The notes under the pieces are model-generated. The model was not told the origin of the DNA. It was given only the letters and a program-made list of their open reading frames with translations, and searched no databases. From NCBI GenBank assembly GCA_944380845.1, contig CALWIU010000045.1, forward strand, positions 164-64,163: a DNA stretch of 64,000 bases, read 5' to 3'. The stretch's first letter is position 1; each line of letters begins with the position of its first letter. Origin of the DNA: an uncultured Clostridia bacterium (GTDB lineage Bacteria; Bacillota; Clostridia; Oscillospirales; Acutalibacteraceae). The position numbers and the translations under genes are program-made. Positions 2,370 to 45,983 of this stretch are shown piece after piece.

Positions 2370-2786
2370 AAGAATACCTCCCAAAAACGAACAAATGTTT
2401 TATTGCTGCTGTTATCATACCGCATTCGACAGAAAAAGTCAAGGAAATAATCGAACAAATTTTCGGATAACAAACGGGACAAAACACGAACGCTCTTTCG
2501 ATTGCTTTCATAATACAACAATATATAGTGGTTGTCAATAGTTGTTATACAATATCTTTGATTTTACAGGAAAATCGGAAATACAGCAGGGTGTGCGTTT
2601 TTTCGACACCTCACAAACACGCGCTGTTTTTCGGCTGTCTTTTGGGCGGCGGTATGCGGAAGGCGGATAAAAAATTTCCTGCTTGCTTGAAAAAGGTATT
2701 TATATTTTTTCTATTATGTGGTAAAATACAGTATCATGCGGTTCTCTACCCGTAACGGGGCGGCCGCGGCAGGACGAGGATGTTTT

Positions 2787-4482: not shown

Positions 4483-4515
4483 ACGCTTGACGGTTTTGGG
4501 AAAGGCGGCAGATGA

Positions 4516-5415: not shown

Positions 5416-5439
5416 TAGAAAAGGAAAGAACAGAAGTCT

Positions 5440-7254: not shown

Positions 7255-7297
7255 GAAAAGGGCAAATCCCTGCTACATAGAAAGGATTGATTTCCTC

Positions 7298-8803: not shown

Positions 8804-8826
8804 AGCGAAAGGAGAGAAGATTTGTT

Positions 8827-9540: not shown

Positions 9541-10345
9541 AAACGATATGAAATCCATGGCGCGGGGCGTTTCCAATATTTATATTGCGGCGTTTATCGC
9601 CGTCGGCGTGATGGGGATTTGCCTGTTTTTTGATGTCGGCGTCGGCAAGTTCGTCTCTTCGCTGGTGCTTCTGGCGATCAGCATTGCCGCCATTGTTGTT
9701 ACCATTATGGCAACGATGGGAGAATTCCGCAAATCGATGTTCGGCGACCGGGGGTACCTGACCCAAACGCTGCCGGTCAAAGCGCCGACGCTGCTGTTTT
9801 CCAAATGGCTGACCTGCGCTTTCTGGATCACCGTCAGCTACGCCGTGGTTTTCCTTTGCCTGTGGCTGATTTATTATTACTGGAACGGCGAAAGCTCGAC
9901 ACAGGCGCTGACCTATATTTTGCAGTCCCTTCCGGATGTCGGTCTGCCGGCGCAGGACATTCTGGTCAAAACCGTTTTGCTGATTTCGTTAAAGATCCTG
10001 CTTTTGCTGTGGATCTTTATTCTGGAAGTCTTTTTCGTGATGACGCTTGCCAATGTCCGTCCCTTTGACGCGGTGGGCAGCGCCGGTCCGGTGATTTACT
10101 TTTTTGTGGTTTTCGGTCTGGTGACCTTCTGCTCGTCCCGGCTGGAACGGGTCTTTAAATCCGCACTGCTGATCCATGCCGACGGGGCTGTCACACTGAC
10201 GGCCGATGAAGCGCTGATCGATTCGGTTCGCTTTGCCGGCGGGGCTTCGGTGACCCTGACGCAGATTTATTTTCAGATCGTTGTCGCGGTTCTGCTGTTT
10301 ATCATTACGGCTGAGCTGCTGGAAAAAAAGGTGAATGTTAAATAA
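9521..10345 (+). CDS. Polytopic membrane protein, putative ABC-2-type permease partner
   Basis: Overlaps the ATPase gene by 20 nt, suggesting translational coupling. About 6 hydrophobic segments. No motif recognised beyond topology. Confidence 0.55.
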   Translation: MLGKLIKNDMKSMARGVSNIYIAAFIAVGVMGICLFFDVGVGKFVSSLVLLAISIAAIVVTIMATMGEFRKSMFGDRGYLTQTLPVKAPTLLFSKWLTCAFWITVSYAVVFLCLWLIYYYWNGESSTQALTYILQSLPDVGLPAQDILVKTVLLISLKILLLLWIFILEVFFVMTLANVRPFDAVGSAGPVIYFFVVFGLVTFCSSRLERVFKSALLIHADGAVTLTADEALIDSVRFAGGASVTLTQIYFQIVVAVLLFIITAELLEKKVNVK

Positions 10346-10363
10346 GAAAAGAGGTGCGGCGGT

Positions 10364-10960
10364 ATGCTGATCGATATTTCAGCGGATATCACCCTTGCGC
10401 CGGTTTATCCCGGTGATCCGCAGCCGGAACGGCAGCAGGTGCAAAGCCTTGAAAAAGGCGATTTTTGCAATCTGTCCACGCTGTTCTGCTGTCTGCACAA
10501 CGCAACGCATATCGATGCGCCGCTGCATTTTGTGAAGGACGGCAGGTCGATCGAGCAACTGCCTTTGGTGGTGTTTATCGGTCCCTGTCATGTTGTAAGC
10601 GTCGAGCCCGGCGCCATAGACGGGCAGACGGCGCGCAAACTTTGTCCGGATGGCTGCAAACGGCTGCTGGTCAGGGGCGGCGGCAAGGCGTATTTTTCCC
10701 CGGAAGGGGCAAAAGCGCTTGCTGAAACCGGTCTTTTGCTGGTGGGGATCGACGCGCCCTCCGTCGGCGGCGGGGACACACAGCGGGAAACCCACACGGC
10801 GTTTTTGCAAAAGCCTGTCGCCCTGCTGGAAGGACTGCGGCTGGACAACGCGCCGGACGGCGACTTCCTTTTGCTGTCGCAGCCGCTGCTGGTCGGCGGC
10901 GCGGAGGCTGCGCCGGCACGGGCGGTTTTGGCTTCACCGGCGGACATTTTGGGCAAATAA
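10364..10960 (+). CDS. Cyclase-family protein / arylformamidase-like (kynurenine formamidase fold)
   Basis: HNATHIDAPLHF matches the HxGTHxDAPxH metal-binding motif of the putative cyclase family. RBS AGAGG. Confidence 0.75.
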   Translation: MLIDISADITLAPVYPGDPQPERQQVQSLEKGDFCNLSTLFCCLHNATHIDAPLHFVKDGRSIEQLPLVVFIGPCHVVSVEPGAIDGQTARKLCPDGCKRLLVRGGGKAYFSPEGAKALAETGLLLVGIDAPSVGGGDTQRETHTAFLQKPVALLEGLRLDNAPDGDFLLLSQPLLVGGAEAAPARAVLASPADILGK

Positions 10961-14938: not shown

Positions 14939-14996
14939 ACAGCTTGAAAGTAACTTTGTTGCTTCAAAGTCTATTTATTTGTACGGAGGAAAAGAA

Positions 14997-15569
14997 ATGA
15001 GAAAAAGTTCTAAAAGCCTTTTGGCTGCAATTGTTTCTGTTGTCCTTGTCCTGTGCATGAGCATGGTCGTTGTCTTCACGGCATTTGCGAATGACGCTCC
15101 CGTCGTTGCTGTTGAGCCGACGACTGCGGAAGGAACGACGGCTGCTGCCGACGATTCTACCGTTCCTGCTGAACCCGAAGAGACAACTACCGCTGTTGCT
15201 GAGCCCACCGAGCCCGTTGAGCCGGATGAAACCACAACGGATGCTGCTGATACCACTGAGCCCGTTGACCCGGTTGTCGGTAAAGTCGGCGATGTCAACA
15301 AGGACGGCGTGATTAACACCACTGACGCTCGTCTTGCACTTCGTATTGCTGTTGCTCTTGAGCATGCTGATGAACTTCAGCTGATCCTTGCTGATGCCAA
15401 CGGCGATATGTATGTAAAGAGCGGCGACGCCCGTATGATCCTGAGATATGCTGTACAGCTTTCTAACAGCGATGACTGCATCATCGGCAGCGATGTCGTA
15501 GCGAGCCAGGTCGCTGAGGATGGCGTAACGGCTGTTAACGATGTCAGCGAGGTTGTTACCGCTGCGTAA
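14997..15569 (+). CDS. Secreted dockerin-only protein (signal peptide, Thr/Pro/Glu linker, dockerin)
   Basis: MRKSSKSLLAAIVSVVLVLCMSMVVVFTAFA signal peptide. Low-complexity EPTT/EPVE linker. Two dockerin Ca-loop/helix segments, GDVNKDGVINTTDARLALRIAV and ADANGDMYVKSGDARMILRYAV (nt ~15288-15461). GGAGG RBS. Confidence 0.8.
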   Translation: MRKSSKSLLAAIVSVVLVLCMSMVVVFTAFANDAPVVAVEPTTAEGTTAAADDSTVPAEPEETTTAVAEPTEPVEPDETTTDAADTTEPVDPVVGKVGDVNKDGVINTTDARLALRIAVALEHADELQLILADANGDMYVKSGDARMILRYAVQLSNSDDCIIGSDVVASQVAEDGVTAVNDVSEVVTAA

Positions 15570-21740: not shown

Positions 21741-22955
21741 ATGAAGATCAATGAAAACTTTCTGAAAATTCAGAACAATTACCTTTTTTCTGATATCGCC
21801 AAAAAGGTTGCCGCTTATAAAGAAGCCAATCCGACGGCGGATATCATTCGTCTGGGCATCGGCGATGTGACCCGTCCGCTGCCGAAAAAAGTAACGGAAG
21901 CGATGAAAAAAGCGGTCGAAGAGCAGGAAAGCGCCGAGCATTTCCGTGGTTATCCGCCGGAATACGGGTATGATTTCCTTAGAAGCGCCATCAACCGCCA
22001 TGATTTCGCTTCGCGCGGGGTCACGCTTCAGGACGATGAAATTTTTGTCAGTGACGGCGCCAAAAGCGACTGCGGCAATATCGGTGATATTTTCGATCAG
22101 GATAATCTGGTTGCCATTTGCGATCCGCTGTACCCTGTGTATGTAGATACCAATGTCATGGCCGGGCGCTCCGGTGATTTGGTGGACGGGCACTGGAACC
22201 GGTTCTATTATATGCCCTGCACGGCGGAAAACGGCTTTTTGCCTGCGCTGCCGGACTGCAAGGTCGATCTGATCTATTTGTGCTTCCCCAACAACCCCAC
22301 CGGTATGGCCATTACCAAAGATGAGCTTGCCAAATGGGTCGATTACGCCAACCGCAACGACAGCGTCATTCTTTATGACGCCGCGTATGAAGCGTACATC
22401 ACCGAAGAAAATGTTCCGCACAGCATTTTTGAGATCGACGGCGCCAAAACCTGCGCCATTGAATTCCGCAGCTTTTCCAAAACCGCCGGCTTTACCGGCG
22501 CACGCTGCGCCTATACCATTGTTCCTCACGAGCTGAAGCGCGGCGGCGTCGAGCTGAACGCTTTGTGGGCGCGCCGTCAGGCCACCAAGTTCAACGGCGT
22601 TTCCTATATCACACAGCGCGGCGCGGAGGCGGTCTTTACCGAAGAAGGACAAAAACAGGTGCAGGAAAACATCGCCTATTATCGTCGGAACGCCAAAGTC
22701 ATTGCCGAAGGGCTGAAAAAAGCGGGCTTTTCGGTTTACGGCGGCGTCAATTCCCCCTATATCTGGCTGCGCGTACCGGATGGCATGACTTCATGGGAAT
22801 TTTTTGATTTGCTTCTGCACAAAATGCAGGTTGTCGGTACGCCCGGTTCGGGATTCGGCGCTGCGGGCGAGGGGTATTTCCGTCTGACGAGCTTCGGAGA
22901 TGCGGAAAAAACCAAAGAAGCGGTCGAGCGCATTACCGCGTATTTTCAAAAATAA
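21741..22955 (+). CDS. dapL: LL-diaminopimelate aminotransferase
   Basis: [11 protein letters not shown]...[14 protein letters not shown]-terminus and [10 protein letters not shown] (PLP lysine), characteristic of DapL. Adjacent to dapF. Confidence 0.9.
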
Positions 22956-23011
22956 ACGGGAAAATTGACCAAAAAAAGAAGGATTTGTTCCCGCAAAAAC
23001 GCATATAATTT

Positions 23012-23040
23012 GAAAAAATGATTGACATATCCTTCTGTCC
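23012..23040 (+). promoter_or_regulatory. Consensus sigma-A promoter
   Basis: TTGACA, 17 nt, TATAAT; both hexamers are perfect. Confidence 0.65.
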
Positions 23041-23129
23041 GTTATATAATTCTATTGTATATAATGCAGTTATGCTCTGTATTTATCGATTTTCTCTGTT
23101 TCAACTAAAAAACGGAAGGAAGTTTTCTG

Positions 23130-25106
23130 ATGAGGAACCAAAAGACTTTTGCCTTAAGGCTGGTCGCGTTTCTGCTGGTCTTTTGCGTTGCAGTCGGTGT
23201 TTTGCCAGTGGCGGCATCGGCGGCTGACAGTACGCTGACAGCAGTTTCGCCCGCTGAGGCAGTGGGGGAATATGTGATTCCGGACGGCACCACCGCTATC
23301 GCGGATAATGCCTTTGCCGGATGTACGGAATTGACAAGCGTTGTCATTCCTGCCTCCGTTAAAACCATCGGCGCGAATGCGTTCCAGGGATGCACATCCC
23401 TTGCAACGGTGAAATTTAACGGCGTGCTGGATCGTGTGGGGCTGTTTGCTTTTAATGATACGCTCTGGTATAAAAACTATCCCACCGACTTCATTTATGC
23501 TTCCTCTCCGAGCGGCTTTAATGTCCTGATCGGTTATAAGGGCACGGATGAGAATGTTGCCATTCCCGCTTCCACCACCGTTATCGGTGAGGGCGCTTTC
23601 TACGGCAACACGACCATTAAATCCGTTATTATCCCGCTGCGTACCACCAAAGTTTCCGATTACGCGTTTTACGGCTGCACGAACCTTGCGGATATCACCG
23701 TCCGCGGTGCGCTTACCGACTGCGGCTTCATGGCGTTTGAGGGCACGGCGTGGCTGGATTCCTATGCCGGTGAATTCATCATCTCCGGTACCATGCTCAT
23801 TAAATACAACGGCGACAAAGATGTTGTTTATGTTCCCAATACGGTGACGCGCATTGCTTCCTATGCGTTCTATGACTGCAAGAGCGTAACGACGGTTCGT
23901 GTTCCCGCTTCCGTAACCGATATCGGCGTAAACGCCTTCTATCTTTACAACGACGGCGGCAACAACAAATACGCTGAAATTTATTGCTGGGAAGATACCT
24001 ACGCGGAAACCTACGCCAAACAGAACGGCCTGTCCATTTCTTCGTACCTGAACTATCCGGGCGATGTGGATTCCAACGGCAGCGTTCAAACCGCTGACGC
24101 GCGCGTTGCTCTTCGTTACGCCGCCAAGCTGGAACGCGATCTGACGGATGCACAGTTCCTTGCCGCTGACATCGGCTGCGATGGAAACATCACTTCTTCC
24201 GATGCGCGTTTGATCCTTCGCATGGCAGTCGGCCTTGCCGAGTATACCCCCGAGGATCTGCTCTTTAAGCCCAATACGGATTTTGAAATCCTGATGGCGT
24301 ACACCGAAGCGGTTCGCCTTGCCTATATCAAGGAAGCCGGTTATAAACTCACGGAGTATCAGAGCATTGACGATGTAAAGGTCGGTCCGTCCTTTATCCG
24401 CACCGCGCTGAACAATCCCTTTAAAACCGACTTGACCAAAGAAGACAAAGCGGAAGCACAGACGCTCTCTTCCGATACCGTCGAAGCACTGGAAAAGCTG
24501 TATCTTTGCGACTTGACCAACAATTCCATTATCAAGGATGCAAAATGCGAGCTGACCGAAAGCGATAAATATTATATCACCATCACCTTGAACGATGAAG
24601 TGGATGTCAGCGACACCGATTCTCTGACCCGCTGCATGTTCCCGGTGGTCGGCAGAGAAGATATGGATCGCCTGCTGAATGAAGAGGAAGGCACCTGGTA
24701 TCACGCTTCTTCTACCGATTTTAATTATAAGATTACTTACCAGAATTGCACATTGAACGCCATCGTCGATGTTATGACCGGCAATATCGAAGACATTGAA
24801 ATGAAGATGGGTTATCGTTTCGATGTCTGGGGTCAGATTTACCTGACGAAAATTCACAACAGAGACGATAAGAACGATCCTGTTGGTTACGCCACCAGAA
24901 CCGATACGGTAAAATATACCGATTTCGATTACACGGTGAAAGAATTTACCACCACCACGACTGAACCGACAACCGTTTATGAAGGAGAAGATCCGGAAAA
25001 TCCCGTAACGGTTGTGCCGACCACCAAAAACAATGACGCCGGCAACTTCCTTGCCGGAATCGGCGATGCGCTGGGCGGTATCTTCGGCAGTCTGATCGGC
25101 GGCTGA
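23130..25106 (+). CDS. Secreted BspA-type leucine-rich-repeat protein with internal dockerin and unknown C-terminal domain
   Basis: Signal peptide. Repeated IPxxVxxIGxxAFxGCxxL units (LRR_5/BspA type). Dockerin GDVDSNGSVQTADARVALRYAA...ADIGCDGNITSSDARLILRMAV (nt ~24060-24236). About 290 aa of unassigned sequence, a TTTTEPTT linker and a Gly-rich tail GNFLAGIGDALGGIFGSLIGG. Confidence 0.8.
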   Translation: MRNQKTFALRLVAFLLVFCVAVGVLPVAASAADSTLTAVSPAEAVGEYVIPDGTTAIADNAFAGCTELTSVVIPASVKTIGANAFQGCTSLATVKFNGVLDRVGLFAFNDTLWYKNYPTDFIYASSPSGFNVLIGYKGTDENVAIPASTTVIGEGAFYGNTTIKSVIIPLRTTKVSDYAFYGCTNLADITVRGALTDCGFMAFEGTAWLDSYAGEFIISGTMLIKYNGDKDVVYVPNTVTRIASYAFYDCKSVTTVRVPASVTDIGVNAFYLYNDGGNNKYAEIYCWEDTYAETYAKQNGLSISSYLNYPGDVDSNGSVQTADARVALRYAAKLERDLTDAQFLAADIGCDGNITSSDARLILRMAVGLAEYTPEDLLFKPNTDFEILMAYTEAVRLAYIKEAGYKLTEYQSIDDVKVGPSFIRTALNNPFKTDLTKEDKAEAQTLSSDTVEALEKLYLCDLTNNSIIKDAKCELTESDKYYITITLNDEVDVSDTDSLTRCMFPVVGREDMDRLLNEEEGTWYHASSTDFNYKITYQNCTLNAIVDVMTGNIEDIEMKMGYRFDVWGQIYLTKIHNRDDKNDPVGYATRTDTVKYTDFDYTVKEFTTTTTEPTTVYEGEDPENPVTVVPTTKNNDAGNFLAGIGDALGGIFGSLIGG

Positions 25107-25115
25107 ACCTGCTCT

Positions 25116-25144
25116 ATCTGCGGGCTTGCAAACAGCCCGCAGAT
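25116..25144 (+). terminator. Hairpin after the LRR gene (no U-tract)
   Basis: 10-bp stem ATCTGCGGGC / GCCCGCAGAT. It is followed by an A-rich rather than T-rich tail, so terminator function is uncertain. Confidence 0.4.
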
Positions 25145-25277
25145 GTAAAAAAATTTCGGGAATCATTTGCTTGAATCGCGAAAAAATAGGATCGGGAGCG
25201 TTGTCTCCTTGTAAAAAGCGCACAATATTATTGTGTCATTTTTGGCGGATTTTATGCGTTGCATGTGGAAAAAGTGT

Positions 25278-25306
25278 TTGACATTTGCGAATCGGTATGA
25301 TACAAT
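25278..25306 (+). promoter_or_regulatory. Near-consensus sigma-A promoter of the cohesin gene
   Basis: TTGACA, 17 nt, TACAAT. About 120-nt leader to the ATG at 25427. Confidence 0.65.
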
Positions 25307-25426
25307 TAAGCGTGTTCAGACACTGAGGCACGCATTCGCCGCCCAGGTCTAAATGCTTTACTGTATATAAATGAATCGTCAACCGGCGGTTCTTTATATA
25401 AAAAATTTTCAAAGGAAGGTTCTAAA

Positions 25427-26086
25427 ATGAAACTTGCAAAAAAAGTACTTGCTTGTGTTGTCGTTCTTGCGATCATGAGCACACTTGCCATCAGTGCTTT
25501 CGCTGCTGATGCTTCCTTGGTTCTGTCGGCTGATAAGAGCGCCGCTGAAATCGGCGACACCATTACCGTGGATCTTTCCATGAGCAATGCTACTGGCCTT
25601 GAGAATCTTGGTTTGTTCGTCAGCTACGATGATGCTGTTCTTCAGCTTGAGTCTGTCGCTTCTTCTAACGACAACGCGATTGCTGAGCAGAACGATGCCG
25701 GTGATGTTAGTGTTGGTTATATGAACATGAACTCCAACTCTAACGCTGACCTTGCTCTTGCGAAAATGACCTTCAAGGTTATCGCTGAAGGCAATGCGAA
25801 GATCACTGCTGCTCTCATCACTGATGACAATGGTGAAGCTGATATCGCTGGTGTTACCGTTGGTTCCACCTCCACCTCCATCAGCGTAACCGGTACCGAG
25901 AAGACCACTGCTGCTCCCGACGAGCCCAGTGCTGCTCCTTCTGATACCACCGCTGCTCCTGCTGGCGACGATACCACGAAACCCGCTGACGAAATTCCTG
26001 CTACCGGCGACGCTGGTATTGCTGTAGCCGCTGGCCTTGTTGTTCTTGCTGGCGCTGCTTTCGTTGCTTCCAAGAAAAGAAAATAA
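25427..26086 (+). CDS. Cell-wall-anchored single-cohesin protein (ScaE-like anchoring scaffoldin) with IPATG sortase signal
   Basis: Signal peptide ...AISAFA. Cohesin-like module (GDTITVDLSMSNATGLENLGLFVSYDDAVLQLESV ... LAKMTFKVIAEGNAKI). Thr/Pro/Ala linker. IPATG (25994-26008), then hydrophobic AGIAVAAGLVVLAGAAFVA and KKRK. Confidence 0.75.
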   Translation: MKLAKKVLACVVVLAIMSTLAISAFAADASLVLSADKSAAEIGDTITVDLSMSNATGLENLGLFVSYDDAVLQLESVASSNDNAIAEQNDAGDVSVGYMNMNSNSNADLALAKMTFKVIAEGNAKITAALITDDNGEADIAGVTVGSTSTSISVTGTEKTTAAPDEPSAAPSDTTAAPAGDDTTKPADEIPATGDAGIAVAAGLVVLAGAAFVASKKRK

Positions 26087-26113
26087 TCTCCGGTAACGGG
26101 TGATTAACAAAAA

Positions 26114-26139
26114 GGGGTCTGTTTCAGATCCCTTTTTTT
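26114..26139 (+). terminator. Rho-independent terminator 1 after the cohesin gene
   Basis: GGGGTCTG / CAGATCCC stem (one G-U pair), 3-nt loop, T7. Confidence 0.75.
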
Positions 26140-26142
26140 GTA

Positions 26143-26179
26143 TTGCTGTTTCTTTTTACAGGAAACAGCAATTTTTTTT
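26143..26179 (+). terminator. Rho-independent terminator 2 (tandem)
   Basis: TTGCTGTTTC / GAAACAGCAA 10-bp stem, T8 tail. Confidence 0.8.
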
Positions 26180-26297
26180 GTTTTCTCGCCGAATAACGAC
26201 GCGCAGCGTACCACCAAAAACAGGGGGTAAGGGTTGTAAGCCCATATTGGGACGAGAAGCACGCGCAATGGTTGTTTGCACGAGTTGCGTCATGCTG

Positions 26298-26684
26298 AGC
26301 ATAAAAGATCGGTTATACAAAAAAGAGCAGCGAGGTCTGGCATAAAAAACGGTGGCTCTGGTATAAATGGTAGATCTGTGTCGAGCGATGCGGATCAACT
26401 GCGAGAAAAGGGAGCGGGCAGTGTCAAGCATAAAAGATCGGTTGTGCCAAAAAAGAGCAGGAAATTTGGTATAAGAAATCGACGCACTCTGGTATAAATG
26501 GTAGGTCTGTGCCGAGCAAAGCGGATCAACTGCGAGAAAAGGAGCGGCAGTGACGAGTATAGTAAATCAGTTGCGCCAAAATAAGAGCGGGGAGGTCTGA
26601 CATAAAAATCGGCGGTGAAGAAGAAAATAGCAGGTCTTTGCAGTATATGGAAGTTGAACTGCCCGTGTATGGCGGTGATACCGG
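26298..26684. repeat. Imperfect tandem repeat, 3 units of 129 bp
   Basis: Units start at 26298, 26427 and 26556. Shared blocks are AGCATAAAAGATCGGTT, AAAAAGAGCAG, CTCTGGTATAAATGGTAG(A/G)TCTGTG and GCGGATCAACTGCGAGAAAAGG. Units 1 and 2 are clearly similar; unit 3 is more degenerate. No intact ORF spans the units. Confidence 0.85.
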
Positions 26685-27054
26685 CAGAACCATAGTCAGG
26701 GAAAAAGAATGTTTGGCGCATCTGTTTGTCAATATAAAATGTTTTTTCCGATGTCTATAGGTAGCAAGTGTTTTGTGCTTTCAGAAGACAGATGCCGCAA
26801 AACAGCCGTTCTTTTCTTTTAAAACAGTGTTTTTTATCCGAAAGGACGGCATTCGCTAAAAGAAGGGAATAACAATAAAGACTGGATAAAAAACAGTGTG
26901 GAAGGTTATCATGCTTTTTCGACTCAATAAGCAAAACCACGGGTATAACGGAAAGGGAATGCACAGGAAAGGGATTCTCCATTTTTGGAAGGTATTGTAC
27001 AGAAGCAGATGCAGTTGACTCGACAATAACCGGTTCCCTAACAATGTCTTTTGC

Positions 27055-27089
27055 AGGTAAAAATTGCCCCGAAGCGGGGCTTCGGGGCA
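27055..27089 (-). terminator. Rho-independent terminator of the amidase gene
   Basis: CCCCGAAGC / GCTTCGGGG stem (27067-27088). On the minus strand it is followed by AATTTTTAC. Confidence 0.7.
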
Positions 27090-27175
27090 GCTTCCGTCAG
27101 CAGCAGGTATCTATGCCGGATCAGGGAATGCTGTTATTTTGCGGCCTGTGTGACGGAAGCAGAAAGCGGCAGGCT

Positions 27176-27922
27176 TTACGAATCAAGTTTGGTGGCTTCA
27201 CGCAGGATCTCGCGGGCGTCGGAGGTGGTTACCTTCCCGTCATTATTCATATCCGCAGCTTCTTCCGCTTCCGCCGTCAGTTTTTCCAATGCGGTTGCCG
27301 CACGCAGCGCCAGACGCGCGTCAGCGGTGGTTACTTTCCCATCGCCGTTGACATCGCCTTTCCGCCGTTCTTTGTTCCATGGAACGCCCACAATTTCACA
27401 AAGGCTCTTTGCGATGGCGTCTGCGGTCTTGTCAAACGAGCGATCCCACGCGGTATTGTCCTTCGTGGATGTGATAAAGCCCAGTTCCAACAGACCCGAT
27501 GCACATTTCGTGTATTTATTGACGGCAAAATCCGTGTAGGAAGGCGCGCCTTTTTTTACGCCGCGGTTTCGCAGACCGTCTGCTTCACACGCCGCCCGCA
27601 GAATTTTTGCCGCTTTTTCAACGGTTTTTTCGGTGGCGTCGCTTTTTACCCAAATTTCGTTCCCGGTCGCGTCCGGGGACGCGGAATTGCGGTGAATCGA
27701 CAGATAATATTGCGCGCCCCAGGCGTTGGATTCCGCTGTGCGGTCATTAAGCTTCTTTTCCGTGTCGTCCGTACGGGCGTATTTTACCGACACGCCGCGT
27801 TCCGTCAGCCGTTTGCCGACAGCAAGGGTCATTTTCAGCACATCGTCTTTTTCTTTTCGTTTGCCGCTGCCGGCGCCGCCGTCCTTGCCGCCGTGTCCGG
27901 CATCCAGATAAATTTTCGCCAT
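27176..27922 (-). CDS. N-acetylmuramoyl-L-alanine amidase (Amidase_3) fused to a C-terminal dockerin; no signal peptide
   Basis: MAKIYLDAGHGGKDGGA..., YLSIHRNS, GLLELGFITS = Amidase_3 (CwlC/CwlD type). C-terminus GDVNGDGKVTTADARLALRAAT...ADMNNDGKVTTSDAREILREAT (nt ~27185-27358). Start re-set to ATG 27922 (GGAGGGAG RBS). Confidence 0.9.
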   Translation of the reverse strand: MAKIYLDAGHGGKDGGAGSGKRKEKDDVLKMTLAVGKRLTERGVSVKYARTDDTEKKLNDRTAESNAWGAQYYLSIHRNSASPDATGNEIWVKSDATEKTVEKAAKILRAACEADGLRNRGVKKGAPSYTDFAVNKYTKCASGLLELGFITSTKDNTAWDRSFDKTADAIAKSLCEIVGVPWNKERRKGDVNGDGKVTTADARLALRAATALEKLTAEAEEAADMNNDGKVTTSDAREILREATKLDS

Positions 27923-28379
27923 AGTCTCCCTCCTTTCAGGCAAAGAGAACTTTGCCCGTCAACAGAATATGGCGGATCCGCGCAGGGGGCAGCATCTGTG
28001 AAAAAGAGGGGAAAAAGAAAGATTGCCGTTCATTAACAGCTTTTTTCTTTTGTTTTCGTGCACACCAGCCATGAAGAAAGCGGCGTGCAAAATGCTTTGC
28101 CGCGGGCTTTCTTTGTATGTAAATGGATTTTCTTTGTATGCAATCGGTCAGAATGGAATCCTGCTTGCGCTTCCGCGCATTTGTTTCCCGCCGTTTGCAG
28201 AATTCGGCATGGAAAAAGTGAATGCAAATCATTTTGGTATTCCTGTTTTGTGACTTTCCGTCTGTTTGTCAGAGAGCAGCCCGTTTTTTAAAACAATTTT
28301 TTTGACCGGAGGCGACAGGTATAATGTTCCGATTTTTGCACATACTACGGGTGAAAGAAATCGGAAAGGATGTTTCGCG

Positions 28380-29072
28380 ATGGATTTGAAAAAAAAGACA
28401 ATCATAACCGCGTCTGTTTTATGCTGTTGTGCGGCGATCGGCGGCGCCGCCTATTTTGGAATTACCAACAACGCGGATTCAGATGATGTATTTGTGCCGC
28501 CTACCGGGTATGTGCGGGAGACGACGGAAGCACCGCTGTATACCGACCCGACAGAACCCCCAGCCACGGAGCCGGTCGAACACGCGGCGGTTAGCGATGC
28601 TGCCGATCAGACCGAGACTTCTTCGGCAGAAAGTGCGACGGTCAGCGGCACCTTGCCGCGCCCCAATTATTTTGAACTGCCGCTTGGACTGGATATTTTG
28701 CAGGATTACAGCCGCACCGAACCGGTATTTAACGCCACCATGGGGGATTGGCGCACGCATAACGGTGTGGATTTTGCAGGCGTAATCGGCGATCCGGTCA
28801 AGGCATCGGCTGCGGGTTTTGTAACCGATGTATATGACGATCCGATGTATGGGGTCGTGATGGAAATCGATCACGGCGGCGGAATCACGGCAAAATACTG
28901 TGGTTTGGGAAAAGGCAGCACCATCCCGGTCGGTACGGAGGTCAAAACCAACGATACCATTGGCTATCTGGGAACGGTACCCTGTGAATCGGACGCCGGC
29001 GCGCATTTGCACATGGAAATGACGGAAAACGGGGAGATCGTTGATCCGTTGGTATTGTTTGAATTGGCATAA
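28380..29072 (+). CDS. Membrane-anchored M23/LytM-family metallopeptidase
   Basis: N-terminal TM IITASVLCCCAAIGGAAYFGI. LytM motifs HNGVDF (HxxxD) and HLHME (HxH). The architecture resembles SpoIIQ-type proteins, but that assignment is not supported further. Confidence 0.85.
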   Translation: MDLKKKTIITASVLCCCAAIGGAAYFGITNNADSDDVFVPPTGYVRETTEAPLYTDPTEPPATEPVEHAAVSDAADQTETSSAESATVSGTLPRPNYFELPLGLDILQDYSRTEPVFNATMGDWRTHNGVDFAGVIGDPVKASAAGFVTDVYDDPMYGVVMEIDHGGGITAKYCGLGKGSTIPVGTEVKTNDTIGYLGTVPCESDAGAHLHMEMTENGEIVDPLVLFELA

Positions 29073-29130
29073 GAAGCGGCTGCTGAAAAAGCGAACAGGC
29101 AAAGCCAGGTTCGCACAAAACAAGCCGACA

Positions 29131-29184
29131 AAACAAAAAAACAGCCTCAAAGGAAAAGAAAATCCTTTGGGGCTGCTTTTATTT
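29131..29184. terminator. Bidirectional hairpin terminator between convergent genes
   Basis: CAGCCTCAAAGG / CCTTTGGGGCTG stem flanked by an A-run upstream and CTTTTATTT downstream. Confidence 0.65.
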
Positions 29185-29279
29185 GACAAAGACCGGCTTC
29201 TTGCCGGATCTGCCGCGTTGGCGGGCGTTTTCGCAGAATGATGTTTGATCTGCTGTTACCCGTGCCCGGCATAGCCGCT

Positions 29280-29585
29280 TTATCCTTCGGCTTCGGGCTG
29301 CGTGAGCACGGCGGTCCATTCTTCGGCGCCGTCAAGGGTCACGCCGGTTCCGGCGACAGCTTCTCTCGGTTCGCGCTTTGCCTGCAAGATCCACAGGTCG
29401 GTTCCGACAAATGCTATCACAAAAAGCAGAACGGCGCAAATCGCAACAAGCAGTTTTCCGCCTCTGCCCAGCCGCGGCGGCGGAGCGTCGGCAGGAAAAC
29501 CTTCCTGTTTGCCGCCGGGATAATCCTTTCGGAAGGTATAATAGCCCCGGGTTCGGGAGGGGCGTTTGGGCTGGTCGTTTTTCAT
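29280..29585 (-). CDS. Small single-TM membrane protein (101 aa), translationally coupled to the RnfD-like gene
   Basis: ATGA overlap with the upstream gene. GAAGGGA RBS 8 nt upstream. Basic N-terminus, then LLVAICAVLLFVIAFVGTDLWIL. Confidence 0.5.
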   Translation of the reverse strand: MKNDQPKRPSRTRGYYTFRKDYPGGKQEGFPADAPPPRLGRGGKLLVAICAVLLFVIAFVGTDLWILQAKREPREAVAGTGVTLDGAEEWTAVLTQPEAEG

Positions 29586-30661
29586 TCCGGTTGTCCCTTC
29601 TTTTCGTTGGCGAGTTGATCTAAATACGCTTCATCGGATTGTGCTGTCTGCCAGCGGCGTCTGCCGGGCGCGCCTTTTTTGGGCTTTTTCATACAAGAGG
29701 AGCGGGCAAGGATTTCACTGACGATGTTTACGCCGAGGGCAATCAAACAGGCGCCGTCCTCAAGAAGCGGGATGCGGCGGGAAAGCATGGTCACGATGCC
29801 GGCAGCCACGCCGAAAAGCGCTTGAAAAAACAAACGGTCGGGCAGATAGCGCGTATCACAGAAAACAAAAATCGAAAGAAAAAGAGCCGTGCCGCCGCTT
29901 AATTCCAGCAGAAGCGATTCTGCTGCGGAAAAAGAGCCCCGGGGCAGCAGCAGGGATGACAGAAGGACGATCATCAGAAAAGCCGCCGGATACACACAGG
30001 AGGAGGGGCGCCGGATCAGCCGGTATAGAAAAGCGGTCAGCATAAGCAGCAGACAGGTACTGCCCATCGGACCGGCAACATTGCCGATCAGCAGGTTTAC
30101 CGTGCCCAGCCGCAGGGCGGCAGACGAATCGCCGGCAGATAAAATTTTCAGAGCGGACAGACCCGTTTCCGGAGAAACCGCGCCGGACAGCGCGTCCGGA
30201 ATCGGGAAGGCAAATATCTGTCGGGGAAAAATCAGCGTTAACACCGAAAGCGCCACCAGTGCGGCGGACAAGCCGTCGGAGCGGATCAGCGTTGGTTTTC
30301 TTGTAATGACAGGGTACAGGACCCGAACGGCAATGACCGAAAGAAACACAATCAGCAGAACCGGAACCAGCGAAAAATCAGCGGGCAGCAAAAGCGCGGT
30401 GATCGCGCCGGAAAAAAGACTGCCCGGCAGGTCAACCGGCGGGTTCTTTGCCTTGTAGATTGCTTTCAGCAGGAGAGCGGACAGCAGATCCGCCGCCAGT
30501 GCCGCCAGAACAGCCAAACAGATCAGGCGCAGCGCGCTGCCGCCGTTGTAATACCACGCCATGACCGACGCGAACAAAAGCAGAATCGCCTGATCGATGA
30601 CGGGAGCGTACGGGTTTTTTCGTTGTTCGGTATTTTTTGCGCGTAAAACACGCTGCGGCAC
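29582..30661 (-). CDS. RnfD/NqrB-family membrane protein (orphan)
   Basis: LLIGNVAGPMGSTCLLLML and ELSGGTALFLSIFVFCD...DGACLIALGVNIVSEIL align with RnfD motifs (LGNxxGSxGETS; SGAT FMN-threonine; DGVAFAVLLAN). Start is ambiguous: GTG 30670 (track) or GTG 30661 (better spacing from AGGAAG). Confidence 0.65.
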   Translation of the reverse strand: MPQRVLRAKNTEQRKNPYAPVIDQAILLLFASVMAWYYNGGSALRLICLAVLAALAADLLSALLLKAIYKAKNPPVDLPGSLFSGAITALLLPADFSLVPVLLIVFLSVIAVRVLYPVITRKPTLIRSDGLSAALVALSVLTLIFPRQIFAFPIPDALSGAVSPETGLSALKILSAGDSSAALRLGTVNLLIGNVAGPMGSTCLLLMLTAFLYRLIRRPSSCVYPAAFLMIVLLSSLLLPRGSFSAAESLLLELSGGTALFLSIFVFCDTRYLPDRLFFQALFGVAAGIVTMLSRRIPLLEDGACLIALGVNIVSEILARSSCMKKPKKGAPGRRRWQTAQSDEAYLDQLANEKKGQPE

Positions 30662-30754
30662 ACAAATCACTTCCTGTCAAGTTTTCCAGAATTTTTGCAT
30701 TGCGCGAAGGGCGTGATCGGAATATGATAGTACTGTGAAACGGAGGGTATCAGA

Positions 30755-31318
30755 ATGAAAATCACTGCCGAAAACGATCGCTGTCTGTCGGTGGAACTGA
30801 CGGGCGACGATATGCGCAAGCTGGATATTACATATGAAGAATTGGATTATGCCAACATTGAAACAAGACGGGTGCTTTGGACGCTGTTGGATGAGGCGCG
30901 CCGGACGCTGGGAAAAAGCATCAGCCTGTCGGATCAGTTGGTCATTGAAACAACGCCGGCGCGGGAAGGCGGCTGCCGGATCGTTTTTACATCTGTTCCG
31001 GAAGAGGAAAGCGAGGATCGGCACTTGCGGTTTATTGCCAAAACAGGGAAACTGTTTTGGGAGTTTGTCAGCGCCGACGCGCTTTTGGATTTTTGGGAAA
31101 AAGCGGTTTTGCCGCCCGGATGCCGGCTGACGGTTTATTATAACGACGGAAAATACCGCGCCCTTGCTGAGACCGACCCGTCGGAACGGCAGACCGTTCT
31201 GGCGGCGGCGGAGGAATTCGGTACGGTTTTGCCCGTCAGCGAAGAGCAAATCGCGCAGACCCGCGAAGGCTGGCGGATCCTTTACGAAACGCCGGCGGTT
31301 CCTCAGACGGTAAACTGA
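30755..31318 (+). CDS. Hypothetical protein, possibly MecA-like adaptor
   Basis: GGAGGG RBS. N-terminus MKITAENDRCLSVELTGDDMRKLDITYEELDYANIETRRVLWTLLDEA resembles the MecA N-terminal pattern. This is a weak, pattern-level call only. The 3' end overlaps the rpe 3' end by 16 nt. Confidence 0.4.
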   Translation: MKITAENDRCLSVELTGDDMRKLDITYEELDYANIETRRVLWTLLDEARRTLGKSISLSDQLVIETTPAREGGCRIVFTSVPEEESEDRHLRFIAKTGKLFWEFVSADALLDFWEKAVLPPGCRLTVYYNDGKYRALAETDPSERQTVLAAAEEFGTVLPVSEEQIAQTREGWRILYETPAVPQTVN

Positions 31319-31971
31319 TCGGCAGCCTGTTTCAGACGGGCAATGGCTTCCTTGCGGTCCGGGGCGCGGAAAACCGTGCTGCCGACTGCGAAGGCGTTGG
31401 CGCCTTTTTCGGCGCACAGGGCGATGGTTTTTTCATCAATGCCGCCGTCTACCTGAATGAGCAGCGAAGGATTCACTTCCTTCGCTTTTTCGCGGATGTC
31501 GTGTATTTTATCCAAACAGGACATTTGGAATTTCTGCCCGCCGAACCCCGGTTCAACGGACATGACCAATACCATTTTGAGCCGTTTTAAATACGGGTAT
31601 ACACAATGGGCGGGCGTATCCGGTTTGATGGATACCGCCGCCTGGCAGGTGTTTTCCTTTGTGATGGCGGTGATGACCTCGTCCGGGTCGCAGTCGCTTT
31701 CCAGATGAAAAGTCAGAATATCGGCGCCTGCCTTCAAAAAGTCCGGCACATAAAACAACGGATCGCGGATCATCAGGTGCACATCGAAGGGCAGACGGGT
31801 GTGGGGACGCAGTGCTTTGATCACCGGCGCGCCGATGGTCAGATTCGGCACGAAATTGCCGTCCATGACATCGATGTGTATCCAGTCCGCGCCGGCTTCA
31901 TCCAGCGAACGGATCTCCCGTTCAAGATTGGAAAAGTCGGAGGAAAGAATGGAAGGGGAAATCACGGTCAT
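31303..31971 (-). CDS. rpe: Ribulose-phosphate 3-epimerase
   Basis: ISPSILSSDF, HIDVMDGNFVPN, DVHLM, MSVEPGFGGQKF, VDGG. Start re-set to ATG 31971 (AGGAG 8 nt upstream). Confidence 0.95.
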   Translation of the reverse strand: MTVISPSILSSDFSNLEREIRSLDEAGADWIHIDVMDGNFVPNLTIGAPVIKALRPHTRLPFDVHLMIRDPLFYVPDFLKAGADILTFHLESDCDPDEVITAITKENTCQAAVSIKPDTPAHCVYPYLKRLKMVLVMSVEPGFGGQKFQMSCLDKIHDIREKAKEVNPSLLIQVDGGIDEKTIALCAEKGANAFAVGSTVFRAPDRKEAIARLKQAADQFTV

Positions 31972-42100: not shown

Positions 42101-42167
42101 GTAAAAGAATAATTGTGGTATTGTACGGTTTGATCCGATTGTCCAACAAGAAGGGAATGTGCAGTCT

Positions 42168-45100
42168 ATGACAAATGCTTTTTACGGCAGACGCTCTGCT
42201 TGCAGGGTGCTGTCTGTCTTCCTGGCGCTTCTGATGGCGCTCTCCGTTCTTCCGATCGGCCTGGTCAGCGCTACGGCGGCTTCTGCGCCGCTGCGCGTGG
42301 CGACGCTTGCCGATCTCCATTATTTCGCCGAGGCGGATATGGGCAATAAGGACGAAGGCTTCACAGCGGCGATGGCAACCAATAACACCTTGCAGATGGA
42401 CGGGATTCTGGATTCCGTTTTTGCTGCTCTTGAACGCTCGGCGAAAGAAAACGGGCTTCAGGCGGTGCTGATTGCCGGTGACTTGACTTACGAAGGTGAA
42501 AAAAGCGGCCATGAGGCGCTTGCCGCCCGGCTGAAAGCCTTTGAAGAAGAAACCGGGCTTTCCGTCTATGTGATCAACGGCAACCATGATATCAACAATT
42601 CCGGCGCGGCAAAGTATATCGCCGATGAAAACGGGAATTATTACTGGGAATATGCCGATACGGTTACCGCAGAAGAATTCAAAAGTATTTACGCGGATTT
42701 CGGCTACAACGAGGCGATTTCCGTTTATGAACCTCCGGTGGGCGAGGAAGCCGGCGCTTTGTCGTATTCGGCGCATTTGGGCGACGGTTATCGTTTGATT
42801 GCGATCGACGCCGGTAAATATTCTCCCGACAGCACCGAAGCCGGTATTTATGAAAAAGAAACCGGCGGCAGCATTTCCGATTCCCTGATGCAGTGGATCC
42901 TTGCGCAGCTTGCTGAAGCGAAGGCTGCCGGTGAAATTCCCATCGGCATGACGCACTGGAACCTTGGCGATCAGAATTATTTTTCCACAGTGGCTCTTCA
43001 GGGCTTTGTGATGGACAACTGGCAGCAGGATGCGGAAACGCTTGCCGATGCCGGAATGCACTTTGTTTTTACCGGACATACCCATGACAGCGATATTTCT
43101 TCCGTGGTTTCCGATCACGGCGAGACGCTGTATAATATCACCACCTGTTCTTTGGGCAACTACCCGAACCAGTACCGCGAAACGGTCTTTACCCCCGGTG
43201 CGGACGGCAGCGTCAGCGCTTCCTTTGAAAAGCACGACTGCGACGAGGTGCTGCCGGTAACGGCGGCGGGCAAAACATACCCGGTTCCCTTTAGCGCATC
43301 CTCTTTTGCCCTTTGCTACGGCTCAACCCCCATGGAGTATCTTTCCAAACTGATTGAGCCCGGCCTGAGAAGCCTGTTGTCTGATATCAAGGGCGCCGGT
43401 CTGGTGCGCTATATCGAGGATAAGGCGGATTTCTCCCTTTATTCCTATTTTGATGAACTGCTGCACGGCGGTTTGATGATTAACAACCAGAACATTGTTA
43501 CCGCACAGAACCTGATGGGCGTTGTCAATGACATTGCCCAGCAGATCGAAGACCGGTATATTAACGATCCGGATTATACCATTGAGCTGGTCGATACCTT
43601 CCTTCAGACGCTGCTGGACATGCAGATTTCAGAGTATCCCTGCTCAAAATTCGTCAGTGAATACGGCTTCGGCAGCAACTCCCGCCCCGGCAATCTGGGC
43701 GATCTGATGTTCTCGATCTTCGTGTATAAAACCAACGGCAACGAGGATATTTCCGACGATCCCTTTATGCTGGATGTGCTGGATCGTTTGCAGAGCGGCG
43801 AACTGGTCACGGATTTGATCGGCCTGCTGCGCACGGAGGCGATCGACAAGATCATTGTCGATGATTTCCTGTCAAACATCAATTTGAACCTGGCTTCGTT
43901 CTTTGTGGATTTCGGCTCGAACGATGTCAAGCAGATCATCAACTTTGTGAAAAACTACGCGTCCGGCGAGGCTGTGAAAAAGATCATTGAATATTATGTC
44001 AATGAAGAAACCTTGCAGTTGTACAATCAGGTCGCTTCCGAAGGTCTGGCGCTGATTGGTATTCAGGGCGTGGACATTCTGGCGATTGTTTCCGGCCTGA
44101 TCGCAATGATCGGTGAACCGCAAATCGATCTGAGCGATGTGAGCATCCGCAATATTGCCGACACGATCCTTGGTTTCGGCGTTTTGGATCAGTACGGCAA
44201 GAGCCTGGATGAAGTGATCGATTATTTCCTGAACAAATACATTACCGATGATGTAAAACAGGGCGTCGGATATCAGCTTTCTATCATGCTGGAATCCTTT
44301 GTGATGGATTCCAACCCGCAGGAAAAGGGCGATTATGATGTGGTTTATACCTATCAGGGCCCTGTCGCTGTGGAAGCAACGGCGGAAAATCTGCGCAAGC
44401 CTTCGCTGGTTGCGCCCTCTTATGGCAAAGATGCGACGACCCAGTTCAATTTCAGCTGGACGACAAAATATTCTGTCACCGGTACGGACATTGAATTTTA
44501 TCCGGTAACCGGAGACTCGCTGCCTTCCTTCACCGGCACGCCGGTGACCGGCGTCAATGTGATCGCCGACTATGAGCCGCTTACCCGCGAGTATTACGGC
44601 ATCGATTTCGGGATCACGGGATTTTTACCCTACGAGATCCAAACCATCCGTCATACCATTACCCTGACCGGGCTTGAGCCGGGAACGACCTATATGTACC
44701 GGATCGGCAGTGCGGAAAACGGCTGGTGGAGCGATATCGGTTCGTTTACCACTTCCGGCGGCGATGATTCGCAGTTTACTTTCTTCCACATGACCGACAC
44801 GCAGTCTACTTCCCCTGAGCAGTACGAAAACGGCTGGGCAAAGGTGATGCAGGCCGCTTACAGTCTCTATCCCGACGCACGGTTTGTCCTGCATACCGGT
44901 GATTTTGTGGATAACGGCGACAACTTCAAGCAGTGGCAGTGGTTCTTTGATTCGGCTGCCGGCACCATCCTGAATTCGGCGATCATGCCGGTATCCGGCA
45001 ACCATGACGCCTACGGCATGAATGTGCTTGTCAACAACTTCAAGATCAATTATGACGGCGAAGACTATGATATGGATGATCCCTTTGCCGACCTGGACAG

Positions 45101-45983
45101 TTACTTCCAGTACACGGACAGCGGCATCTACTATTCCTTCGATTACAACAACGCGCATTTCGCCATTTTGAACAGCAACGATCTGAAGGAAAACGGTGAG
45201 CTGACCGATGAGCAGCTGGAATGGCTGACCAATGATATGCAGAGCAGTGACGCGGAATGGAAAATCGTTGCTTTCCACAAAGCGGTTTATTCCAACGGCG
45301 ATCACTACAAAGATGACGATGTGGTGGGTCTGCGCGGTCAGCTGGCGACCCTGATGCCGCAGTTGCAGGTTGACCTTGTGCTGAATGGTCACGATCATGT
45401 ATACTTCCGCACCGAGCCGCTGAACAACAATACCGTTGATGCAGACTGCAACCACGATGTGATCATGCAGAACGGTACGGCGATTGTGGAAGCGATGATC
45501 AATCCCGACGGTACGATCTATTCCATCAACGGCAGTGCCGGTGTCAAGAGTTATACGGGGGTTTCCTCAGAAGAAACCAAAGATTATTTCCCGGATGCGG
45601 CGGCAACTTATCCGTCCGATGAACCGATCTTTACGGCGATTACCATCCGTGACAACCAGTTGATCTTTAAATCCTATGCCGTCGGCGATAACAGCGCTTT
45701 GACGGAAATCGATAGCTTCGGCATCATTAAGGACTTTAACGAGCTGAAACGCGGCGATGTGGATTTGAACGGTTATGTCAATTCGACCGACGCCCGGCTG
45801 GCGCTTCGCTTTGCGGTCGGTCTGGATAAGCTGACCGGCAGAAGCCTGATTGCCGGCGATGTGGATGAAAACGGCGTCATCAATTCCACTGACGCCCGCC
45901 TGATTCTCCGTGCCGCCATCGAGCTGGAGCCTTTCGAGAATCCGTATGTTGACGATACCTATGTCAGACCGAATCTGGCATAA
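42168..45983 (+). CDS. Secreted dual metallophosphoesterase (calcineurin-like plus purple-acid-phosphatase-like) with C-terminal dockerin
   Basis: Signal peptide. MPE domain 1: LADLHYF, AGDLTYEG, INGNHD, FTGHTHD. PAP N-terminal FN3-like region: FNFSWTT...PGTTYMYRIGS. MPE domain 2: FFHMTDTQ, HTGDFVDNGD, SGNHD, VAFHKAVYS, LNGHDHVYFR. Dockerin GDVDLNGYVNSTDARLALRFAV...GDVDENGVINSTDARLILRAAI (nt ~45753-45926). Confidence 0.85.
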   Translation: MTNAFYGRRSACRVLSVFLALLMALSVLPIGLVSATAASAPLRVATLADLHYFAEADMGNKDEGFTAAMATNNTLQMDGILDSVFAALERSAKENGLQAVLIAGDLTYEGEKSGHEALAARLKAFEEETGLSVYVINGNHDINNSGAAKYIADENGNYYWEYADTVTAEEFKSIYADFGYNEAISVYEPPVGEEAGALSYSAHLGDGYRLIAIDAGKYSPDSTEAGIYEKETGGSISDSLMQWILAQLAEAKAAGEIPIGMTHWNLGDQNYFSTVALQGFVMDNWQQDAETLADAGMHFVFTGHTHDSDISSVVSDHGETLYNITTCSLGNYPNQYRETVFTPGADGSVSASFEKHDCDEVLPVTAAGKTYPVPFSASSFALCYGSTPMEYLSKLIEPGLRSLLSDIKGAGLVRYIEDKADFSLYSYFDELLHGGLMINNQNIVTAQNLMGVVNDIAQQIEDRYINDPDYTIELVDTFLQTLLDMQISEYPCSKFVSEYGFGSNSRPGNLGDLMFSIFVYKTNGNEDISDDPFMLDVLDRLQSGELVTDLIGLLRTEAIDKIIVDDFLSNINLNLASFFVDFGSNDVKQIINFVKNYASGEAVKKIIEYYVNEETLQLYNQVASEGLALIGIQGVDILAIVSGLIAMIGEPQIDLSDVSIRNIADTILGFGVLDQYGKSLDEVIDYFLNKYITDDVKQGVGYQLSIMLESFVMDSNPQEKGDYDVVYTYQGPVAVEATAENLRKPSLVAPSYGKDATTQFNFSWTTKYSVTGTDIEFYPVTGDSLPSFTGTPVTGVNVIADYEPLTREYYGIDFGITGFLPYEIQTIRHTITLTGLEPGTTYMYRIGSAENGWWSDIGSFTTSGGDDSQFTFFHMTDTQSTSPEQYENGWAKVMQAAYSLYPDARFVLHTGDFVDNGDNFKQWQWFFDSAAGTILNSAIMPVSGNHDAYGMNVLVNNFKINYDGEDYDMDDPFADLDSYFQYTDSGIYYSFDYNNAHFAILNSNDLKENGELTDEQLEWLTNDMQSSDAEWKIVAFHKAVYSNGDHYKDDDVVGLRGQLATLMPQLQVDLVLNGHDHVYFRTEPLNNNTVDADCNHDVIMQNGTAIVEAMINPDGTIYSINGSAGVKSYTGVSSEETKDYFPDAAATYPSDEPIFTAITIRDNQLIFKSYAVGDNSALTEIDSFGIIKDFNELKRGDVDLNGYVNSTDARLALRFAVGLDKLTGRSLIAGDVDENGVINSTDARLILRAAIELEPFENPYVDDTYVRPNLA

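Follow-up and report, generated by a model that had tools for sequence, protein, structure and literature searches.

The locus described here raises the question of how a cell wall amidase that carries a dockerin, a module typical of extracellular proteins, and has no visible export signal could reach the cell wall and what it would bind there. The gene is located at positions 27176 to 27922 on the minus strand of a 64,000-nucleotide stretch, here called the window, of contig CALWIU010000045.1 from an uncultured Clostridia bacterium of the family Acutalibacteraceae (assembly GCA_944380845.1). A preliminary description of this DNA had likened the protein to the mother-cell lysin CwlC of Bacillus subtilis, with the wall-binding domain exchanged for a dockerin, and had asked how and when such an enzyme is exported; the export question proved to be a genuine one. 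The explanation preferred here, with a probability of roughly 0.6, is that the gene encodes a domesticated amidase of phage type, which is released when the cell membrane is breached and then docks on the product of the neighboring cohesin gene. The part of this explanation that concerns origin, i.e., descent from a phage lysin and retention of the gene under selection, is held with considerable confidence. The gene and its two domains are as follows.

27176..27922, minus strand: leaderless amidase-dockerin gene, 248 amino acids plus stop (open reading frame and translation, Pfam domains)
27401..27913, minus strand: Amidase_3 catalytic domain, residues 4 to 174 (Pfam, invariant columns, PDB alignment, Foldseek)
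27194..27361, minus strand: dockerin module, residues 188 to 243, with two EF-hand-like Ca loops and three helices (Pfam, PDB matches, structure model)

Both domains, which the preliminary description had named, matched their Pfam profiles far above the cut-offs. The Amidase_3 profile (PF01520) matched residues 4 to 174 with an E value of 3.7e-34 and 118.7 bits (cut-off, 27), covering 172 of its 174 positions, and the Dockerin_1 profile (PF00404) matched residues 188 to 238 with an E value of 4.5e-11 and 43.2 bits (cut-off, 22.9). Residues H10 (in DAGHGG), E24, H77 (in SIHRN), and E146 (in LLELGF), which we take to be the metal-binding (Zn His/Glu/His) and catalytic Glu positions of Amidase_3, were invariant in alignments of 26 and 22 sequences, and the motifs around them lined up with their counterparts in CwlV (1jwq) and 4rn7. 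The AlphaFold2 model, built with 26 homologues, had a predicted local distance difference test score of 94 and consisted of the amidase core followed by three C-terminal helices (residues 199 to 209, 217 to 223, and 233 to 243). In Foldseek, the core superposed on CwlV, a Clostridioides difficile amidase, and two endolysins, PlyPSA and CD27L; the E values were about 1e-15 for 4rn7 and 1jwq (target TM score, 0.88 to 0.90; root mean square deviation, 1.7 Å) and 7e-14 to 5e-11 for phage endolysins of the PlyPSA/CD27L type. By profile, motifs, and fold, the protein is a regular member of Amidase_3 and a predicted N-acetylmuramic acid (MurNAc)-L-Ala amidase. The C-terminal part matched, by sequence, the type I dockerin structures 4fl4, 1clc, and 1ohz_B of Clostridium thermocellum (E values of 7.6e-6 to 1e-3), and both of its Ca loops are complete, with 12 residues each (D190-x-N-x-D-G..D201 and D224-x-N-x-D-G..D235). 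By its profile and loops, this module is a canonical two-repeat type I dockerin that is predicted to bind a cohesin.

The absence of a leader peptide, another claim of the preliminary description, was borne out in three ways. The longest in-frame extension begins at a TTG codon at 27943 and adds seven residues with no signal peptide, as had been expected, and a stop codon 8 codons upstream of the start rules out a signal peptide encoded farther upstream. The hydrophobicity maximum over 12 residues in the N-terminal region was 0.84 for the amidase versus 2.4 to 3.3 for the cohesin protein and for the remaining four dockerin proteins encoded in the window. The start itself is supported by 26 homologues, all of which open with M-x-K-I-Y/F-I/L-D-x-G-H-G. 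The amidase lacks the Sec signal peptide of secreted dockerin enzymes of the cellulosome or amylosome type and is the only dockerin protein of the window without a signal peptide. Since there is no export signal, the enzyme would be expected to accumulate in the cytoplasm and to reach the wall only upon a breach of the membrane.

Such a mode of action is that of holin-dependent phage endolysins, a parallel that the preliminary description had offered as an alternative and that turned out to describe the family. In a search of 5.8 billion proteins, the combination of Amidase_3 and dockerin was found in more than 90 clusters of 245 to 270 residues, all from metagenomes or metagenome-assembled genomes of Oscillospiraceae, Acutalibacteraceae, and related Clostridia. 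Distant relatives have the same catalytic domain with SH3_3, SPOR, PG_binding_1, or Cpl-7 at the C terminus, and longer variants, all leaderless, carry the dockerin plus SH3_3, SPOR, or a second dockerin; the domain combinations in these longer variants can be read as typical endolysin module shuffling. At 18 of 20 species-representative genome loci, a gene for a small protein with 2 to 4 transmembrane (TM) segments, a holin, is located directly downstream of the amidase-dockerin gene. The remaining two loci are one at a contig end, with tail-like genes upstream, and one orphan (L086). Three PHROG holin families account for the small proteins, of which one is Pfam Phage_holin_5_2, and an XhlA-like protein is often encoded alongside. 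On the 5' side of the cassette lysin genes are tail, internal-virion, or Dit/XkdX genes. The window protein (P0001) itself matched five PHROG endolysin families, including phrog_435 (E value, 4.8e-41), 2742, and 12727. Because of the genomic context of these relatives, the family is regarded as one of phage-type, holin-dependent endolysins aimed by a dockerin as the predicted targeting module.

The likeness to the Amidase_3 endolysins of phages of Gram-positive bacteria (PlyPSA of Listeria phage PSA and the CD27L and phiCD111 lysins of C. difficile phages) extends to the lack of a leader, an N-terminal Amidase_3 domain of the same fold, a C-terminal targeting module, and, in the relatives of the window copy, a holin next to the gene. 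In contrast to these endolysins, the targeting module of the window protein is a dockerin, i.e., a protein-protein interaction module rather than a carbohydrate- or peptidoglycan-binding domain, and the window copy has neither a holin nor a phage context. Among INPHARED phage genomes and the 80 best IMG/VR loci, only the catalytic domain was matched and no dockerin was carried, and the literature searched yielded no description of a phage endolysin that is targeted by a dockerin.

The phylogeny of the family separates the window copy from its phage-borne relatives. A tree of 104 family members was evaluated with Shimodaira-Hasegawa-like approximate likelihood ratio test (SH-aLRT) supports. The window copy falls into a clade of 17 rows (SH-aLRT support, 99) that splits in two. 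One sub-clade, of eight rows (support, 89), contains every non-phage copy examined, namely, those of window/L170, L174, L086, L175, L168, and L172, here called the orphan loci. The four loci examined in the sister sub-clade (support, 86), namely, L166, L171, L173, and L176, all carry the gene within a phage. This pattern would fit a scenario in which the gene was taken from a phage once and passed on vertically thereafter. The amidases of L174 and L086 are 87% and 66% identical to that of the window, respectively. The amidase gene of L168 has an Rrf2 gene on one side and an MFS gene on the other, and that of L172 follows a SpoVT-like gene (218.8 bits; cut-off, 235.9).

No phage genes were detected in the whole 64-kb window, in agreement with what had been stated earlier for the flanks of the gene. 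The content of the window is housekeeping, with obg, lepA, pgk, dapF, clpC, fusA, and polysaccharide synthesis genes, among others. Eleven holin or XhlA-like queries gave no match with an E value of <0.1 in the 64 kb, including the gap downstream of the amidase gene. A lysis cassette with an adjacent holin, as expected for an endolysin gene, is found at the 18 genome loci mentioned above and at L171 and L176 but not at the window locus, and none of the six orphan loci has an adjacent holin.

At the opposite end of this range of contexts, a podovirus-like structural block, the amidase-dockerin gene, a holin gene, and a gene for a small TM protein occupy one chromosomal site in nine Acutalibacteraceae species.

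L091, L092, L093, L097, L098, L099, L100, L102, L104, about 1-10400 each: loci of the site-fixed module

The same 168-amino-acid gene (55 to 87% identical) directly follows the cassette in all nine loci. Because the nine loci share an identical site and podovirus-like genes, the cassette may be a fixed, phage-derived module resembling a gene transfer agent (GTA) rather than a set of active prophages. These loci suggest a different explanation for the window gene, in which it is the lysis enzyme of a GTA-like particle system or prophage whose other genes, including the holin, are located elsewhere in the genome. A leaderless lysin needs some membrane-breaching partner, and the lysis genes of RcGTA, an endolysin and holin locus, are split from the particle cluster. 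FpGTA comprises two loci, of which the FpGTA II operon, with a holin and an endolysin, lies apart from the main cluster (PMC12946183). The window gene resembles these GTA lysis genes as a probable phage-derived lysin retained by its host, with relatives in site-fixed podovirus-like modules. It differs from them in that GTA lysins keep an adjacent holin, whereas none accompanies the window copy, which was not seen to be tied to any particle cluster. The 64 kb contain neither a holin nor a structural gene. Every phage and module copy has the holin right beside it, but 0 of 6 orphan loci do, and the orphan gene carries a terminator of its own together with a promoter-like box that is conserved. 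From the 64 kb and these loci, a role as a detached GTA or prophage lysis gene is considered improbable.

The gene is maintained by purifying selection that includes the dockerin. In comparison with L174, the ratio of nonsynonymous to synonymous substitution rates (dN/dS) was 0.105 overall, at a dS of about 1; the catalytic domain gave 0.09 and the dockerin 0.105. Across eight chicken-gut metagenome runs, the amidase gene had 6 single nucleotide polymorphisms, three of them synonymous, and no insertions or deletions, which were numerous in the flanking noncoding DNA. The low dN/dS and the indel-free alleles therefore make a decaying prophage remnant unlikely. A nonfunctional leftover, standing beside the cohesin gene by chance, would be in line with the phage origin of the family and the lack of a partner holin nearby, and the amidase sequence has changed more rapidly than those of the housekeeping genes around it (66% versus 75 to 84% amino acid identity to L086). 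However, all catalytic and Ca-binding residues are intact, and the gene is kept in at least six loci of the orphan sub-clade together with a conserved upstream box, ribosome binding site, and terminator. Very little credence is given to the leftover explanation. On positions 22900 to 31400 of the window, runs X5, X6, X11, and X14, which are labeled METAGENOMIC RNA-Seq, gave contigs of 7 to 48 kb and a flat depth across intergenic DNA; because of these properties, the runs are considered to be DNA and not evidence of expression.

The amidase gene is a separate unit, with a ribosome binding site, a strong terminator, and a conserved upstream segment. The elements around it are the following.

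27926..27933, minus strand: ribosome binding site GGAGGGAG, 3 nt before the ATG (sequence; kept in L174)
27939..27956, minus strand: 7-bp perfect hairpin GGCAAAG-TTCT-CTTTGCC with a 4-nt loop, immediately 5' of the ribosome binding site (alignment and fold; also forms in L174)
27963..27971, minus strand: candidate -10 box CATATTCTG, 49 nt before the ATG (motif comparison across the orphan loci)
27065..27089, minus strand: intrinsic terminator of the amidase gene, with an 11-bp stem, 8 GC pairs, and a T tail

The ribosome binding site directly before the start had been noted in the preliminary description and was found as GGAGGGAG. The hairpin could be an mRNA stabilizer or an operator. Five of the six orphan loci have the sequence CATATnnTG at a distance of 38 to 57 nt before the start codon, and a count over 128 kb of window sequence gave only 5 exact occurrences. 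The resemblance of this box to a sigma-E/K -10 element hints at sporulation control: the -10 box of the sigma-E/K type in the C. difficile sigK P2 promoter is CATATAAT, and the sigma-K -35 element is AC (PMC3789822). An AC is located 16 to 17 nt upstream of the box in L086, L168, and L175.

This box bears on the possibility that the protein is a functional analogue of CwlC, i.e., a mother-cell lysin produced under a late sporulation sigma factor. Such a role would be a special case of the preferred explanation, to which it adds the name of the trigger. The window protein and CwlC are both leaderless Amidase_3 enzymes with a C-terminal targeting domain of similar size, both are encoded by stand-alone host genes, and the window gene possibly has a -10 box of the mother-cell type. 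The SpoVT-like gene before the amidase gene of L172, although below its cut-off, and the divergent M23 neighbor of the window gene, whose best match is SpoIIQ far below the cut-off, point in the same direction. However, the window and L174 have neither AC nor ATA at the -35 position, CATATnnTG contains an ordinary TATnnT box, and looser forms of the motif are frequent by chance. A sigma-70 promoter scan found no site upstream of the amidase gene, and strict sigma-K and sigma-E regular expressions gave no match at the right place in the window. The C terminus of CwlC is a SPOR-type repeat domain and not a dockerin. There was no sign of orthology: the best NCBIfam match was TIGR02883 (CwlD), at 63.2 bits versus a cut-off of 221.55, and the nearest relatives of the protein are phage lysins, mostly from cassettes. 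The kinship with CwlC that the label in the preliminary description implies was thus not upheld. A functional analogy, with release by mother-cell lysis, is possible and gains weak support from the conserved box, but it is rated as rather unlikely.

The region upstream of the amidase gene differs among the orphan loci. Directly upstream and in the same orientation, L001/L086 (4795-5484) and L174 (2-208) have a gene for a six-TM membrane protein of the SfLAP family. This protein was considered as an export partner; it is absent from the window and hence not required. In its place, the window has a divergent gene (28374-29072, plus strand) for a 232-amino-acid membrane-anchored M23 (LytM) protein, whose match to SpoIIQ reached 61 bits versus a cut-off of 250.

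The second half of the question, what the dockerin would bind, leads to the convergent neighbor of the amidase gene.

25427..26086, plus strand: convergent neighbor with a signal peptide, a single cohesin, a Thr/Pro/Ala linker, and an IPATG sortase anchor (Pfam and anchor profile)
26180..27060, no strand: gene-free stretch of about 0.9 kb between the cohesin and amidase terminators (tandem repeats)

The cohesin assignment made in the preliminary description is correct, since the product matched the cohesin profile PF00963 with an E value of 7.3e-9 and its sorting signal is of the Rumino_NPXTG type (29.2 bits; cut-off, 23.5). The convergent arrangement of amidase and cohesin genes was found in four lineages (window/L170, L086/L001, L174, and L175), which span the deepest split of the orphan sub-clade, and the pair has been kept although both flanks are rearranged. 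The contig of L174 ends in the cohesin terminator, and L175 has a partial cohesin gene whose product is 44% identical to the window cohesin and has an identical anchor. The gene-free stretch contains three imperfect tandem repeats of 129 to 131 nt (26298-26684). The 0.9-kb repeat-bearing insertion is confined to the window species, and the gap is about 165 to 375 nt in L086, L174, and L175. An Rfam search of the gap at 26180-27060 and of the 5' region of the amidase gene gave only subthreshold, terminator-like matches.

Four other dockerin proteins, all with signal peptides, are encoded in the 64 kb, versus one cohesin.

14979-15569, 23130-25106, 42159-45983, 59069-59989: other dockerin proteins

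This set comprises a bare dockerin protein, a BspA-LRR protein, a 1274-amino-acid phosphoesterase, and one protein of unknown domain. The amidase dockerin is 45 to 51% identical to these four secreted dockerins, with the common pattern GDVNxxGxV.T.DAR.ALR. Together, gene linkage and sequence type suggest the neighboring cohesin as the docking site of the amidase, with about even odds. The purifying selection on the dockerin would be indirect evidence for such binding.

The shared dockerin type and the adjacent cohesin gene could also mean that the amidase is an exported member of a cohesin-dockerin hub, which leaves the cell by nonclassical secretion and acts on the walls of other bacteria or in wall turnover, as in the "lyticome" idea. 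PMC6403190 cites a lysozyme with a dockerin from the cellulosome of Ruminococcus champanellensis (Morais et al. 2016; PMID 27555215) and dockerin-containing wall hydrolases (Bensoussan et al. 2017), which provide a precedent. The statement of the preliminary description that a dockerin on a wall hydrolase is uncharacterized was therefore too strong. The R. champanellensis enzyme resembles the window protein in that it combines a peptidoglycan hydrolase with a dockerin in Oscillospirales, and docking to a scaffoldin cohesin was proposed or shown for it, according to the same source. It differs in being a lysozyme and a cellulosome component, whereas the window protein is a leaderless amidase of probable phage-lysin descent. 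Cellulosome components are described with signal peptides and export by the Sec pathway (PMC5817068), but the amidase stands alone among the window dockerin proteins in having none. Nonclassical secretion is rated low because every member of the family is leaderless, whether or not it is phage borne, and the exported-hub explanation is accordingly judged quite improbable. Secreted lysozymes that bear a dockerin are already known; the window gene encodes a leaderless phage-type amidase with a dockerin and is genetically paired with the gene of a wall-anchored cohesin.

In the explanation preferred here, the amidase stored in the cytoplasm would gain access to the wall by one of two triggers. 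The first candidate is a holin whose gene lies at another place in the genome, within a prophage or a GTA-like module, and the second is programmed lysis, for example that of the mother cell when sporulation ends. Outside the cell, the dockerin would bind, in a Ca-dependent manner, the wall-anchored cohesin of 25427..26086. Docking would keep the amidase on the wall of the producer or its kin, where it would cut the stem peptide from MurNAc. Several points weigh against this explanation. The two sub-clades that separate orphan from phage-borne copies have SH-aLRT supports of 86 to 89%, obtained by a quick search instead of a full bootstrap. The negative results for holin, prophage, and GTA-like genes cover the 64-kb window, so that a partner elsewhere in the genome is possible. 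Orphan loci L168 and L172 have no neighboring cohesin, and the window promoter has no recognizable -35 element.

Dockerin-like segments were also observed outside the complete amidase-dockerin proteins. In half-dockerin hybrids, the first repeat is exchanged for a SPOR-like segment and the second (GDMDGDGKITAxDAR) is retained. Single dockerin-repeat-like segments are located at the N terminus of tail-region proteins of the phage-derived modules and, likewise, in the glucosaminidase of two large phage contigs.

L102:6283-7056, L104:7998-8786, L105:1162-1956, L106:7998-8795: half-dockerin hybrid lysins
L091:5437-6504, L092:4086-4922, L093:4413-5342, L094:4187-5116: tail-region proteins with a dockerin-like segment, first set
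L096:4713-5963, L097:6410-7387, L098:5214-6050, L102:3647-4489: tail-region proteins with a dockerin-like segment, second set
L166:10992-11723, L173:6805-7533: glucosaminidase with a dockerin-like segment, large phage contigs

The segments of the tail-region and glucosaminidase proteins matched a custom hidden Markov model with E values of 5e-17 to 2e-4 and are below the Pfam cut-off. If they are real, phage particles may also contact cohesins. One metagenome protein, P0089 (430 amino acids), has the C-terminal two-thirds of an amidase-dockerin behind an unrelated N terminus of about 260 amino acids and represents either an assembly chimera or a gene fusion.

A broader and rather speculative interpretation is that the cohesin-dockerin interaction serves as a protein "wall receptor" for an entire group of phages and phage-derived particles of gut Oscillospirales. 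The lysins, and possibly the tail-region proteins and the virion-type glucosaminidase, would then bind cohesins on the host surface instead of wall glycans. One host lineage would have captured the lysin and the cohesin as a two-gene, self-targeted autolysis module, whose expression may be triggered by a sporulation sigma factor of the mother cell.

To our knowledge, the targeting domains of endolysins that have been described to date recognize wall polymers, such as peptidoglycan, teichoic acids, or choline. If a cohesin-dockerin pair directs a lysin, the targeting logic would be a different one, in which specificity is set by a surface protein. This would have a bearing on the host range of phages and on the retention of lysins on debris in the gut, and it may offer a route to engineered lysins with programmable targets. 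The orphan clade supplies a concrete candidate pair, to which 27176..27922 contributes the dockerin and 25427..26086 the cohesin, and it would illustrate neatly how a phage lysin can be domesticated by its host. The roles of cohesin-dockerin interactions would extend beyond polysaccharide degradation. If the sigma-E/K lead is true, uncultured gut spore-formers would have an independent, phage-derived solution to mother-cell lysis.

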